34,082 nt of DNA from a plasmid. Shown here in pieces: positions 18,356 through 23,945 of this stretch (position 1 is the stretch's first letter; every line of letters begins with the position of its first letter). Made by a program: the position numbers and the translations under genes. The notes beneath the pieces were generated by a model that worked only from the letters and a program-made list of their open reading frames with translations, made no database searches and had not been told where the DNA came from. The DNA lies in the sequence record NZ_CP045730.1; one strand, written 5' to 3'.

Positions 18356-18821
18356 TGACTGTGAAACCTTCCTGAAGATTATTCCATGTTCCCATGGGCC
18401 TCACCTCACAAGGGAAAAGACAGCCACCGCCCTTAAAACTTCTTGCTCAATCCATTATACAGGGAAATTAAAAATCAACCAAGAGCAATAAAACTGCTCT
18501 TGACAGCAAAGGAAAGCTACAACACTAGCAAGGTCAGCAAGCAAGGCTAATAATACTGCTGCAATGGGAAATGACAAGCGTCCAGTAGGGCGGTCCAAGA
18601 GCGGGCGCAAACCCTACCAGGCAGTACGATTATAAAAGTAAAGAAGGTCATAAAATCAGCTACTAGAGGGAAAACTGTGGTAAAAGACAAATAAGATGGT
18701 GAAATGATGACTATAAAGTCAAGTCAGATAAACAGGTGATTAAGCATACAAATTGCTTTTGACACTTTACTTACTTATAATAAGTACAATAACAAATGAC
18801 TAGTAAAAGGCGGGTAAAACA

Positions 18822-20455: not shown

Positions 20456-23389
20456 TCAAATAGTAAATCTATTTATAACTACTAAACCCAAGCTTAGCAA
20501 TAACGTCACTAGTCCAATTAACATCATACCTATTGATGATTCATTACCTGTTTGAGGTAATTTACCTGTTTTTTCGTAGGTTTTACCTTGAGTGTAAGCT
20601 TTTGGTGTTACCTTATTCCCATTATTAGGAACTTGAGGTTTCTTGGGCGTTGTCGGGTTATTAGGAACCTGGGGCTTCTTAGGCGTTGTCGGATTATGGG
20701 TATTAGTAATATTGTAACCATCGACAGTACTGGTGTACCCCGCAACGGCATTTTCCGTTACCGTGTAGGTGATCTTCTGACCATTAGCATAAGCAGCTAA
20801 GTTGTCGAAACTGTATTGCCAGTTATCACTAGCACTAACCGTCTTACTTGCGACTTGCCGACCGTTAGCCAACAAGTTCACCGTGATTGAACTTGGGCGG
20901 ATTCCATCTTGATTGTTGTTATCCTTCCAAGTCTTGGTTCCGGATACCTTGACGGTGGCAGGAGTATGGTTGTTAGTTACGTTGTAACCATCAACAGTAC
21001 TGGTGTACCCCGCAACCGCATTTTCCGTTACCGTGTAGGTAATCTTCCGACCATTAGCGTAAGCGGCTAAGTTGTCGAAACTGTATTGCCAGTTATCACT
21101 GGCACTAACCGTCTTGCTTGCGACTTGCCGACCGTTAGCCAACAAGTTCACGGTGATTGAGCTTGGGCGGATTCCATCTTGATTGTTGTTATCCTTCCAA
21201 GTCTTGGTTCCAGATACCTTGACAGTGGCAGGAGTGTGGTTGTTGGTTACGTTGTAACCATCAACAGTACTGGTGTACCCCGCAACTGCGTCTTCCGTAA
21301 CTGTGTAGGTAATCTTCTTACCATTAGCATAAGCAGCTAAGTTGTCAAAGCTGTACTGCCAGTTATCACTAGCACTAACTTTCTTGCTTGCGACTTGTTG
21401 ACCATTGGCCAATAAGTTCACTGTGATTGAACTTGGGCGGATTCCATCTTGATTGTTGTTATCGTTCCAAGTCTTGGCTCCAGATACCTTGACGGTGGCA
21501 GGAGTGTGGTTGTTGGTTACGTTGTAACCATCAACAGTACTTGTGTACCCCGCAACTGCGTCTTCCGTAACTGTGTAGGTAATCTTCTTACCATTTTCAA
21601 ATTCAGGTAAGTTAGTAAAGCTGTACTTCCAGTTGTCTGATGCCTTCACTGTCTTACTCTGAACAACCTTACCATTAGCTAATAAGTTTACCTTGATTGA
21701 ATCAGGGCGCTTGCCGTCTTGATCATCATTATCTTTCCAAGTCTTTGTACCTGAAACGGTAGTAACAGCTTTCTTATCTGTGATCGTTGCTGTTGCTCCC
21801 TTAGAGTCAAAACTATCAGCTGAAACAGTAACATCTTTAGCCAATGTATATCCCGATGGAGCCGAAGTTTCACGTATAATATAATCATCTTTTAGAAGAC
21901 CATAAATTGTTCCTTTACCATCAGGACCAGTAGTTATGGTTCCAACAACCCCATTAGTTGACTTGCGAATAACAGAAAAAACAGCATTTGCAAGTGGGGC
22001 TCCAGATTCATCCTCTTTATTTATAGTTAAACTATAATTATATCCATTAGCTTTGCCATTAGCCTCTTGGTAAAGAACTCTATTTATAGAACTGTTTATT
22101 ACCTTCTTATTAGATTTATAGCTAACATCATTCTCGACCAGTTCGCCATTAAGTAATGGATGGTTTGACTTAACCCGGTAGACAATTGCATAACCCTCAG
22201 ATATATTGCCCAATTTCACTGTATAAGCACTATTGCTTGAATTAATATCAATGTTATATTGGCTTGTCACATCTTGTGGATTGCTCAATGTCCAATAGTT
22301 CTCAGAATTTCTTTCCCAATTCCCTTTAGAAATAGAAAAACTTCCGGGCACATAAGAAAAACCATCTGAAGCCAAACTATCAGAGATAACTACATTACTG
22401 ACACTTTGCATAGAGGCGTTAATGTTGACGTGATAGATAATTTCATTCTTGTTATTGTCATAATCAACATATCCGTACTTCCAAAAGTCTGTTGCTGTAT
22501 CACCCTTGGAAGGTATGTGTTTTATACCAGATCTATCAATCGTAACGGTGTGCCCATTAATCTTGATTTCCGCTGGTATGGTCTCTTCTTTATTAATTTC
22601 ACTTGTAGCGGCCGTTACTTGCATATCAATATGGCCACTTATTGAGTCATGTGAATCAACGTAATCGGTGTAGGTTAGAACAAGTGATTTGCTGGGCTTA
22701 TCGATAACTGCTGTAGCTACAACAGTTTTGCCATCAGGTGCATAAATATTAAACTTCTGAGATCGTTGGAAATCTAACTGATCCGGTAATGAAATAGTTG
22801 TTGTATCCCCAGATTTGGCTGAATCTGGAACTGAGAAATCAAAAGAGAATTCTGTAGTTCCTCCACCTGAGATCTCCTTAGTTGATGATCTCTGATTGGT
22901 AATTGTAATATCAACGCTAGTTCCTTTATTATATGCAGATGGGGAACTATTATTCTTAGAAATACTATTAACTGATGGACCCTGATTAGTATTAGCCCCA
23001 CTATTAGAAGTCGAGTATTGACTATTACTTATATAATTACGGTCCTCCTGAACTGGCTGATTATTGTCAGTTGGTGCTCTCGGTTGTGCTTCTGTATTAG
23101 TAACTTGTTTCTGAGACGTCTGATCGTCCGAAGAACTAGTATTATCTGTGGTATTACTATTAACGGTACTTATCTGCGGTTCTTCCTGTTGATTAATAAC
23201 AGTCCCGGACCCCGTACCGTTCTGAGTAATATTTGTCTTGCTATCAGCATATACGGTCATACCATTATTAGATGATATCCATATTGACCCTAATAACGAA
23301 AATAAGACTAGTCCCATCATAAATAAAAGTCGACGATGCCTAGATTTATTACTTATAATGTTGCCTCCTTCTTTGTTTTCTATGCGCAA
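20456..23389 (-). CDS. LPXTG-anchored surface adhesin: signal peptide, Ser/Thr-rich region, A-domain, four ~94-aa B-type (Cna B-like) repeats, Pro-rich stalk and an LPQTG sorting signal
   Basis: LPQTG plus a hydrophobic segment at the C-terminus; a signal-peptide-like N-terminus; four 282-bp DNA repeats (~20700-21830), three of them nearly identical. The start codon is uncertain (TTG at 23389 or a downstream ATT/ATA after a GAAGGAGG). Confidence 0.8.
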   Translation of the reverse strand: MRIENKEGGNIISNKSRHRRLLFMMGLVLFSLLGSIWISSNNGMTVYADSKTNITQNGTGSGTVINQQEEPQISTVNSNTTDNTSSSDDQTSQKQVTNTEAQPRAPTDNNQPVQEDRNYISNSQYSTSNSGANTNQGPSVNSISKNNSSPSAYNKGTSVDITITNQRSSTKEISGGGTTEFSFDFSVPDSAKSGDTTTISLPDQLDFQRSQKFNIYAPDGKTVVATAVIDKPSKSLVLTYTDYVDSHDSISGHIDMQVTAATSEINKEETIPAEIKINGHTVTIDRSGIKHIPSKGDTATDFWKYGYVDYDNNKNEIIYHVNINASMQSVSNVVISDSLASDGFSYVPGSFSISKGNWERNSENYWTLSNPQDVTSQYNIDINSSNSAYTVKLGNISEGYAIVYRVKSNHPLLNGELVENDVSYKSNKKVINSSINRVLYQEANGKANGYNYSLTINKEDESGAPLANAVFSVIRKSTNGVVGTITTGPDGKGTIYGLLKDDYIIRETSAPSGYTLAKDVTVSADSFDSKGATATITDKKAVTTVSGTKTWKDNDDQDGKRPDSIKVNLLANGKVVQSKTVKASDNWKYSFTNLPEFENGKKITYTVTEDAVAGYTSTVDGYNVTNNHTPATVKVSGAKTWNDNNNQDGIRPSSITVNLLANGQQVASKKVSASDNWQYSFDNLAAYANGKKITYTVTEDAVAGYTSTVDGYNVTNNHTPATVKVSGTKTWKDNNNQDGIRPSSITVNLLANGRQVASKTVSASDNWQYSFDNLAAYANGRKITYTVTENAVAGYTSTVDGYNVTNNHTPATVKVSGTKTWKDNNNQDGIRPSSITVNLLANGRQVASKTVSASDNWQYSFDNLAAYANGQKITYTVTENAVAGYTSTVDGYNITNTHNPTTPKKPQVPNNPTTPKKPQVPNNGNKVTPKAYTQGKTYEKTGKLPQTGNESSIGMMLIGLVTLLLSLGLVVINRFTI

Positions 23390-23575
23390 TACTAAAGATT
23401 ATCACATGCCCTTATATTACCATATTCTTATAGAAAATTTCACACTAACTTCATCAACCGTCAACAGTGATATCACTAGTATTAGCGTAGTTAGCAAACG
23501 TATGTTCCTTTAAGTTGCTAGGAAGCTGATTAAAAATAGTCGAAAGTCAGTTATAGTCATGCTATAATGTAAGAC

Positions 23576-23693
23576 AGAAAAAGGAAGCCCCGCGTGAACA
23601 GGACTTCCCATGTAGAGCCGTTTAAGACGGTGGCATAATTTAACGTTATTAAATAACCGCTAGCTTGCCAGAGCTAAGGCGGTTATTTTTTTT
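23576..23693 (+). ncRNA. Candidate antisense/antitoxin sRNA of Fst-like type I TA locus 2
   Basis: The same extended -10 element ATGCTATAAT (23560-23569). Conserved 5' stem GGAAGCCCCGC..CAGGACTTCC, a covarying second stem and a terminator hairpin plus T8. Confidence 0.5.
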
Positions 23694-23787
23694 GCTGACT
23701 TTTAATCAGCTCAACAATTAATGCAATTAAGGCCACGATAAAAGTACCGAAAGCCAGCATTAATTGTAAAGCGTCCGCAACGGACAC
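23683..23787 (-). CDS. Fst/Ldr-like type I toxin peptide (34 aa), paralogue of 18266..18355
   Basis: GTG start with an AAAGGAG ribosome-binding site. Encodes MSVADALQLMLAFGTFIVALIALIVELIKSQQKK, which aligns with the locus-1 peptide. The stop overlaps the sRNA terminator T-run. Confidence 0.5.
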   Translation of the reverse strand: MSVADALQLMLAFGTFIVALIALIVELIKSQQKK

Positions 23788-23945
23788 TTAGGCTACTCCT
23801 TTCATTAGGATTTATGGGCTTTAAAGGTTTAACACCATAAGCACCACCTCCGATCGGAAATAGCCACCGCCTTAACTTCTCTACAAAGAACTATTATACA
23901 GGCAACTCACTGCATGACCAAGCGCTTAAAAGGCTATTTTCAAAA

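Follow-up and report, generated by a model that had tools for sequence, protein, structure and literature searches.

Which of two convergent RNAs do the conserved stems of a small plasmid locus serve, and to which toxin family does such a locus belong? These questions are raised by locus 2, which lies in a 34,082-nucleotide (nt) stretch of plasmid DNA (record NZ_CP045730.1; hereafter the window, to whose positions the coordinates refer). A first-pass annotation had described the interval 23555-23880 as an Fst-like type I toxin-antitoxin (TA) locus paralogous to another copy, locus 1, and had taken base changes shared by both arms of a stem as direct evidence that the structure of the small RNA is under selection. 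In this work, we found that locus 2, as judged from its sequence, is a paralogous type I module of the TxpA/RatA-SprG/SprF class, composed of a Hol_Tox peptide, a RatA small RNA, and an rli28 toxin mRNA, and that this predicted class is widespread on the plasmids of Lactobacillales. We consider it probable that in this TxpA/RatA-type module a toxin mRNA of ~315 nt folds its 5' end onto its 3' end, and that the small RNA competes for the 3' untranslated region (UTR).

The small RNA gene of locus 2 is read from the + strand. Its promoter (23540-23568) has TCGAAA as a -35-like element, a 17-nt spacer, and an extended -10 element (TGcTATAAT, 23560-23568), and scored 10/12 plus the upstream TG in the promoter scan. 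The RatA-type antisense RNA, recognized by Rfam RF01776 and by our own covariance model, would be ~120 nt long (23574-23693), with its 5' end placed from the position of the -10 box and its 3' end from the terminator T1, a hairpin followed by a T-run (23652-23693) that was called as a terminator on the + strand but not on the opposite one. T1 overlaps the final codons and the stop codon of the toxin open reading frame (ORF; 23683-23787, - strand), and the small RNA and the ORF end share positions 23683-23693. As had been annotated, this ORF in the ORF list starts with GTG and encodes a 34-amino acid (aa) peptide, MSVADALQLMLAFGTFIVALIALIVELIKSQQKK, on which the small RNA converges (Pfam Hol_Tox, E = 1.1e-17). 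The Shine-Dalgarno sequence, evident from the letters themselves (AAAGGAG, 23796-23802, -), lies 8 nt 5' of the GTG and is kept across relatives, and the toxin promoter is located at 23893-23920 (-; TGGTCA, 16-nt spacer, TATAAT; promoter scan 10/12). The full-length toxin mRNA is predicted to cover ~315 nt (23572-23886, -) and would span the whole small RNA gene. The interval originally assigned to the locus contains all features listed for it but leaves out the toxin promoter and the ~6 first nt of the toxin mRNA.

Locus 1 (18126-18460) has a layout equal to that of locus 2. Its small RNA (18139-18268, +) faces an ORF of 29 aa (MSVFQTLSLMLLFGTFLIALLSYIDKHHK; 18266-18355, -; Hol_Tox, E = 2e-13), and both the small RNA and the small hydrophobic ORF are homologous to those of locus 2, which upholds the description of locus 2 as a second paralogous toxin/antisense RNA locus. 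The toxin peptides share 52% identity, and a repeat finder paired 18123-18179 with 23556-23612. The promoter and the 5' stem are indeed the same in both copies: the -10 region ATGCTATAAT is identical at 23559-23568 and 18126-18135, and the arms of stem 1 are located at 23583-23593 and 18149-18159 (GGAAGCCCCGC) and at 23599-23608 and 18166-18175 (CAGGACTTCC). The GCCACCGCC motif is likewise kept 5' of the toxin ORF (23863-23871 and 18423-18431, both -). The covariance model of the small RNA scored 89.6 bits at locus 2 (E = 6e-26) and 75.3 bits at locus 1 (E = 2e-21); the search for further copies that had been suggested at the outset returned just these two in the window and no third.

Both peptides are members of Hol_Tox. 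Pfam PF16935 gave 64.0 bits for locus 2 and 50.3 bits for locus 1 (cutoff 23.3), and neither peptide matched Fst_toxin, even at E <= 10, or any Pfam family other than Hol_Tox. TxpA and SprG1 likewise matched Hol_Tox, and Fst matched Fst_toxin only. NCBIfam returned sub-threshold matches to PepG1 and ComI for the window peptides. BLASTP of the locus 2 peptide against TxpA gave no alignment, so the family link stands on the common Pfam profile; peptides of this kind from Lactobacillales were placed in the TxpA family by Fozo et al. (PMC2887945). For the RNAs, Rfam RF01776 (RatA) gave 89.7 bits at locus 2 and 55.4 bits at locus 1 (gathering threshold 49), and RF01492 (rli28) gave 51.0 bits over the toxin mRNA of locus 2 (23905-23721, -; gathering threshold 45), with relatives scoring 48-103 bits.

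These assignments bear on the label "Fst-like." In a par/Fst-like locus, RNA I and RNA II would share a bidirectional terminator, the 5' stems would be selected in the small RNA, and GCCACCGCC would be a target site or a repeat. The convergent layout suits this possibility, and true Fst-type Lpt loci do occur on Lactobacillus plasmids (PMC5608710). Like locus 2, par of pAD1 (Fst/RNA I-RNA II) and Lpt of Lacticaseibacillus plasmids are plasmid-borne type I TA systems of Lactobacillales with convergent RNAs, a membrane peptide of ~30 aa, and a structured toxin 5' UTR. However, the peptides found here lie outside the Fst family, and on these family grounds the possibility is largely refuted. Lpt, the characterized Fst-type toxin of Lactobacillus, has the core AIIAPLLVGVFLLL and the promoters TATACT and TAAAAT (PMC5608710, PMC11352940), both of which differ from those of locus 2, where neither an APxxVG core nor a match to Fst_toxin is found (PMC11352940). 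In addition, locus 2 lacks the DRa/DRb direct repeats through which the 5' regions pair in par, its terminator arrangement is different, and the motif common to its two RNAs is present in the same sense in both. Membership in Hol_Tox, RatA, and rli28, together with the difference from Lpt, means that the locus type is a known one and that the label is wrong; taken with the strand evidence below, a par/Fst-like organization appears unlikely to us. Pairing of the DRa/DRb type between the small RNA 5' domain and the toxin 5' UTR or start was also considered in 26 loci and was rejected, as only weak, inconsistent, GU-rich matches were obtained.

DNA similar to the locus is present in 862 PLSDB plasmids, chiefly of Lactiplantibacillus, Enterococcus, Lacticaseibacillus, Pediococcus, Levilactobacillus, and Leuconostoc, in which the ORF is annotated as "putative holin-like toxin." In 20 homologous plasmid loci that we fetched (L001-L020), 23 RatA and 11 rli28 matches were above the gathering thresholds, and each rli28 match is convergent with a RatA-type small RNA (RatA at gathering or our own covariance model). 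The 27 aligned small RNA copies form two subtypes, namely, type A (locus 2-like, with a 34-aa toxin) and type B (locus 1-like, with a 29-aa toxin). All small RNA copies in these 20 loci face a Hol_Tox-type ORF, save one in L003 (pSF118-20, 14241-15951). There, an IS3-family insertion (14418-15797) lies between the type A toxin gene (14241-14345) and the small RNA (15877-15944) and also removes the terminator of the small RNA, such that the toxin gene is uncoupled from its cis antitoxin; this plasmid has two more copies of the module.

The rli28 family, catalogued as a Listeria small RNA, covers 186 nt at the promoter-proximal end of the toxin mRNA, including the Shine-Dalgarno sequence and most of the Hol_Tox ORF (window 23721-23905, -; L004-L011, L018, L019, and the whole-plasmid loci L001-L003). 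Based on this coverage, rli28 in the window and its relatives is the predicted toxin mRNA, not a non-coding RNA. An rli28/ratA pair is highly expressed on the Listeria plasmids pLM80, pLM7802, and pLM5446, where rli28 was regarded as a possible cis regulator (Anast and Schmitz-Esser, 2022; PMC9484302). That pair resembles locus 2 in having the same two Rfam families in convergent orientation on a plasmid, with a small hydrophobic ORF inside "rli28," but the hosts and the subtype differ and the study came without a structural analysis (PMC9484302). Two further annotation details were observed. The Rfam RatA model begins inside the -10 box (UAAUG). Also, PGAP called many type B toxins as 20 aa (a 63-nt coding sequence) from an internal Met (L002 11377-11439, L003 17486-17548, L012, and L016-L018), whereas the conserved type B ORF with a Shine-Dalgarno sequence has 29 aa (MSVFQTLSLMLLFGTF...); the start codon calls differ between records.

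The covariation claim rested on stem 2, drawn as GCCGTTT/AGACGG at locus 2 (23617-23630) and GCCGCTT/AGGCGG at locus 1 (18183-18198). The joint change of both arms is real but involves only one base pair, C-G at locus 1 and U-A at locus 2, and the arms are present but would leave a loop of 1 nt at locus 2 if paired as drawn. A feasible stem at locus 2 (GCCGUU-UAA-GACGGU; 23617-23631, +) has 6 bp (G.U, C-G, C-G, G-C, U-A, and U.G) closed by the loop UAA. We registered the stem 2 alignment by hand, the model-derived alignment having type B out of register, and obtained 13 distinct variants with an invariant CCG/CGG core. With homologues added, a single pair was changed on both sides, being U-A in 8/13 variants, C-G in 3/13, and unpaired (C.A or A.A) in 2/13; this exchange is not significant across the 13 variants. 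As many covarying pairs occurred in 396/500 shuffles, and the covariation score of 0.191, compared with 0.152 in shuffles, was matched in 27/500. Covariation in stem 2 is thus weak as direct evidence of structure in the small RNA and adds almost nothing to the case for this stem.

Other features speak for stem 2. In total, 84% of its cells are paired, compared with at most 57% for slid partners, and the small RNA strand gives the hairpin greater stability at locus 2 (-5.8 vs. -3.5 kcal/mol) and in 24/27 loci. It is already included in the Rfam RatA consensus, which annotates both hairpins. Probably, stem 2 is a genuine hairpin, if a small one, that is restricted to the small RNA, and this strand preference, like the annotation of both hairpins, would also be expected of a par/Fst-like locus. 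The minimum-energy fold of the locus 2 small RNA alone pairs the stem 1 region with the stem 2 region and did not return the two hairpins.

Stem 1 (GGAAGCCCCG, 23583-23592, with CAGGACTTCC; 23583-23608, +) gave a much clearer signal, with two-sided changes at 9/10 pairs and observed values that were reached in 0/500 shuffles. Covariation alone is silent on the strand that is selected, but the direction of wobble is informative, because C.A, when read from the complementary strand, becomes G.U. On the small RNA strand, the stem 1 cells comprise 215 Watson-Crick pairs, 35 C.A, and 2 G.U, and locus 2 itself has two C.A mismatches; this asymmetry points to the toxin mRNA strand. Consistent with this direction, the hairpin is more stable on the toxin mRNA strand in 26/26 loci (means of -17.6 vs. 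-10.5 kcal/mol), with -18.6 vs. -7.7 kcal/mol at locus 2. The strong covariation therefore stands, but the wobble cells and energies fit the strand opposite to the small RNA, so selection on stem 1 is best explained by structure in the toxin mRNA, to which this best-supported stem has to be reassigned. A par/Fst-like locus, with 5' stems selected in the small RNA, is hard to reconcile with this asymmetry in all 26 loci and with the non-significant covariation of stem 2.

On the toxin mRNA strand, stem 1 is a GC-rich hairpin followed by the U-tract UUUUCUGUCU at locus 2, and it is the sole minus-strand terminator-like site at each of the two loci. Stem 1 looks primarily like an intrinsic terminator of the toxin mRNA, T2, which would consist of the antisense of stem 1 and the tail UUUUCUGUCU at locus 2 (23572-23609, -) or UUUUCUGUUU at locus 1 (18138-18176, -). 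As for T1, the terminator hairpin had been called different but equivalent in the second copy, and its hairpin and T-run are present there at 23652-23693. The stability of the T1 hairpin does not differ between the strands, a symmetry that suits a bidirectional par-type terminator, but in most loci the T-run follows on the + strand only (mean T in 8 nt of 7.1 on the + strand and 3.0 on the - strand). The loop of T1 (23667-23673, 18239-18245, and homologues) is conserved as GCCARAG or GCUAAAG across subtypes and genera, and its stem covaries; the loop sequence on the mRNA strand, CUYUGGC, includes a YUNR-like U-turn motif and, by analogy with par, may be a kissing-loop initiation site.

If the toxin mRNA passes through to T2, its 3' UTR would include the antisense of the small RNA gene. 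The toxin mRNA's 5' end and the linker/stem 2/GGUGGC segment of the small RNA are alike in the same sense, which rules out pairing of the two RNAs at this place. Nonetheless, the two segments change together from locus to locus, with GUAGAG, ACAGUA, GAUAGU, GCAGAA, and GCAAGA at the mRNA 5' end accompanied by GUAGAG, ACAGCA, GAUAGC, GCAGAG, and GCAAGC, respectively, in the small RNA. Such joint same-sense changes are expected if the mRNA 5' end must pair with its own 3' UTR. Complementarity exists between the first ~25 nt of the toxin mRNA and the antisense of this small RNA segment, and it is kept by compensatory and wobble changes across genera. The two strands of the proposed long-distance helix, as delimited by folds, duplex energies, and covariation, are UGUAGAGAAGUUAAGGCGGUGGC (23862-23885, -) in the 5' end and UGCCACCGUCUUAAACGGCUCUACA (23611-23635, -) in the 3' UTR at locus 2, and AGCAAGAAGUUUUAAGGGCGGUGGC (18423-18447, -) and 18179-18202 (-) at locus 1, where the duplex energy is -40.9 kcal/mol. 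The GCCACCGCC motif is therefore not only retained upstream of the ORF but lies within the 5' strand of this helix inside the toxin mRNA. A conserved 2 x 2 internal loop sets AA in the mRNA 5' end opposite GG (CC on the small RNA side), and it is through these bases that stem 2 of the small RNA becomes possible.

Toxin mRNAs were modelled from 7 nt past the -10 box to T2 (~300-320 nt, n = 20), and the 5'-3' helix is part of the minimum-energy fold in 20/20. The fold-back duplexes have energies of -25 to -42 kcal/mol, compared with -11 to -17 kcal/mol for shuffled 5' ends (-34.4 vs. -13.2 kcal/mol at locus 2), and cognate pairs average -35.6 kcal/mol, compared with -25.0 kcal/mol for non-cognate pairs from other subgroups. 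In the fold-back alignment, 94.9% of the cells are paired, compared with 84.6% in shuffles and 29-67% with slid partners, and all of the 7 outer pairs have two-sided changes, with 51 such cells in contrast to 19 in shuffles (0/500). Unrestricted RNAduplex runs of the small RNA against the mRNA gave unrealistic end-to-end duplexes and were not used. Furthermore, transition differences between the same-sense copies are wobble-compatible with pairing between the mRNA 5' and 3' ends in 43 cells and incompatible in 4 (21 vs. 4 for unique contexts).

This last bias helps in weighing another explanation, namely, that locus 2 is an ordinary TxpA/RatA module with a short 3' overlap at T1, in which the complementarity of the 5' end acts in trans or on DNA and not intramolecularly, for example, with a separate read-through or antisense transcript or as a protein-bound inverted repeat. 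Published Gram-positive families do overlap partially at their 3' ends (PMC8594479, PMC6393307), and some loci have a reasonable minus-strand U-tract after T1. However, the bias of 43 vs. 4 cells requires that an RNA pairs with an RNA antisense to the small RNA gene, and one-directional G.U-type differences would not be tolerated in an inverted repeat at the DNA level. The plasmid loci and most loci of the scan described below also have a terminator-like hairpin directly past the 3' strand, and the spacing from the 5' strand is constant. We consider such a short-overlap module improbable.

To look beyond these plasmids, one genome per species was scanned with the pattern CGGTGGC-N(8-22)-GGTGGTG-N(0-4)-CTTATG, which excludes the outer helix and the 3' strand. 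The scan returned 120 stretches, including 41 with a Hol_Tox-type ORF from various Lactobacillales (Enterococcus spp., Vagococcus, Tetragenococcus, Marinilactibacillus, Alkalibacterium, Liquori-, Companilacto-, Furfuri-, and Levilactobacillus, and Lactococcus). Of the 41 loci, 39 have a 5'-3' duplex with an energy of at most -20 kcal/mol (mean -29.5 kcal/mol), and z was below -3 in 37/41. Nearly all loci that have the duplex carry the 3' strand 219-235 nt downstream, and in most of these a hairpin with a U-rich tail comes next, ahead of TTATAGCA, the antisense of the small RNA promoter. New versions of the outer helix were present (ACAGAG/CUCUGU, GCAGAG/CUCUGC, GGCAGAA/UUCUGCU, and UGCAAG/CUUGCA). 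In the scan set, 94.5% of cells are paired, outer pairs with two-sided changes again number 7/7, and there are 29 further pair types, compared with 21 in shuffles (0/500). The exceptions L033 and L125 have frameshifted ORFs and replaced 3' regions.

Degenerate copies of this kind are what would be expected if locus 2 were a decaying, non-functional TA relic carried passively on a mosaic plasmid. Besides L003, which is split by the insertion, and the frameshifted L033 and L125, three copies (L013 640-, L015 617-, and L002 45089-) have replaced 5' regions, such that the mRNA 5' strand of the helix is lost and the small RNA and the ORF are kept. At locus 2, however, the ORF is intact, the two promoters and the two terminators are present, the fold-back is strong, and the DNA is 96% identical to annotated copies in other genera; moreover, compensatory evolution implies ongoing selection. 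We regard passive decay as very improbable. The copies that lost the 5' strand or the reading frame may be viewed as natural "mutants" for the role of the fold-back.

Several points weigh against a fold-back with competition by the small RNA. The fold-back alignments were hand-registered to the proposed structure, and their many close relatives inflate the shuffle statistics. The predicted fold-back itself leaves the Shine-Dalgarno sequence uncovered; in the predicted fold, this sequence has only weak pairing, and a local hairpin of 9 bp holds the start codon. In Melissococcus (L021, -12.4 kcal/mol) and Streptococcus salivarius (L024, -15.2 kcal/mol) the fold-back is weak, as is the helix in S. 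acidominimus and in a few of the 41 scan loci. In addition, the position of the toxin mRNA 3' end at T2 is one that we infer, and the minus-strand tail after T1 has 4-6 T per 8 nt in type A and some enterococcal loci, where part of the toxin transcripts could end. The roles of toxin and antitoxin in the subfamily of locus 2 are likewise putative.

In the mechanism that we propose for the fold-back module, the toxin mRNA would pass through T1 and stop at T2, giving a ~315-nt transcript that spans the entire antitoxin gene. By analogy with hok (fbi/tac) and aapA1, its 5' end would fold onto its own 3' UTR and yield a compact, stable transcript. The small RNA, perfectly complementary to the 3' UTR (23574-23693), would bind there and displace the mRNA 5' end, and the long duplex may then be directed to RNase III-type decay, as for txpA/RatA; RatA acts by 3' duplex formation and RNase III (PMC8167048, PMC3531473). 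Once the plasmid is lost, the small RNA, being labile, would vanish, leaving the stable toxin mRNA to be translated. Transcriptional interference between the convergent promoters, ~330 bp apart, is allowed in this scheme.

The two paralogues may also affect each other. Their small RNAs (18140-18178 and 23574-23612) share identical runs of 20 nt (ACAGAAAAAGGAAGCCCCGC) and 13 nt (AACAGGACUUCCC), so each could pair with the T2 region of the toxin mRNA from the other locus. The non-cognate duplex energy is about half of the cognate value, and cross-talk between the loci is possible.

Among known systems, TxpA/RatA of the Bacillus subtilis skin element and SprG/SprF of Staphylococcus aureus are similar to locus 2 in having Hol_Tox toxins and a convergent antisense RNA on the 3' side that overlaps the ORF end. 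In these systems, formation of a 3' duplex is followed by RNase-dependent decay, which by analogy is expected at locus 2. TxpA has 59 aa, compared with 34 aa for the locus 2 peptide, and the published 3' overlaps are partial (57-120 nt; 57-97 nt for SprG/SprF, PMC6393307), whereas the locus 2 mRNA appears to span the whole small RNA gene and to fold back. Overviews describe partial 3' overlap for Gram-positive families, including TxpA/RatA and SprG/SprF, and give full overlap and 5'-3' interactions as features of Gram-negative families alone (Hok, AapA, Ibs, and Ldr; PMC8594479). The proposed fold-back resembles hok/sok (fbi-tac) and aapA1/IsoA1, in which the extreme mRNA 5' end pairs with the 3' end and the helix is kept by compensatory changes; the long-distance interaction of aapA1 stabilizes the mRNA and blocks translation (PMC8167048). 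These systems have unrelated peptides and RNAs and Gram-negative hosts, and their antisense RNAs target the 5' region, with 3' trimming activating the mRNA. At locus 2, in contrast, the target of the small RNA would be the part of the 3' UTR with which the 5' end pairs, and the long-distance helix does not include the Shine-Dalgarno sequence.

The locus type is a known one, an ordinary catalogued plasmid module. A fold-back in the TxpA/RatA-type family appears to be undescribed, since a non-exhaustive literature search found no description of either a fold-back or a mirror-image terminator for this family. For the full picture, in which the toxin mRNA crosses the whole antitoxin gene, ends at the mirror image of the 5' stem of the small RNA, and is closed by a 5'-3' helix of ~23 bp, with the antitoxin acting as a mimic of the mRNA 5' end that competes for the 3' UTR, we put the chances at about even; it would represent a hok/aapA-like fold-back lock in Firmicutes.

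Copies of the module repeatedly adjoin ArdC-like anti-restriction genes (window locus 1, L005, L007, L017, and L018), and others adjoin ssb (L010 and L011) or MobQ relaxase genes (L001 5287, L014, and L015). These copies are in or near plasmid transfer or leading regions, which recalls hok-family loci in the leading region of F. The ArdC-like gene upstream of locus 1 looks frameshifted: a perfect 77-nt tandem duplication, which is not a multiple of 3 (17102-17255), lies at the end of an ORF with an ArdC N-terminal domain (16917-17222), and the metallopeptidase-like C-terminal part is in a separate ORF (17351-18109) just upstream of locus 1. The gene is either a pseudogene or an assembly artefact. 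Directly left of locus 2 is the gene for a 977-aa Cna B-type surface protein (20456-23389, -), which contains four tandem 270-nt repeats that are 68-93% identical (20691-21800). Elsewhere in the window, the RepA gene (3051-4187; RepA_N, Bac_RepA_C) has a pair of perfect 54-nt direct repeats together with a third copy of 72% identity to them (3503-3676), and these may be iteron-like repeats embedded in a coding region.

The assignment of locus 2 to TxpA/RatA-SprG/SprF instead of Fst/Lpt changes the experimental precedents that apply to a family found on >800 sequenced plasmids of food, probiotic, and clinical Lactobacillales. If the fold-back is true, it would add a Gram-positive family to those with hok/aapA-style mRNA locking and would bear on plasmid stability, on the annotation of rli28 as a toxin mRNA, and on possible cross-talk between paralogues that reside on one plasmid.

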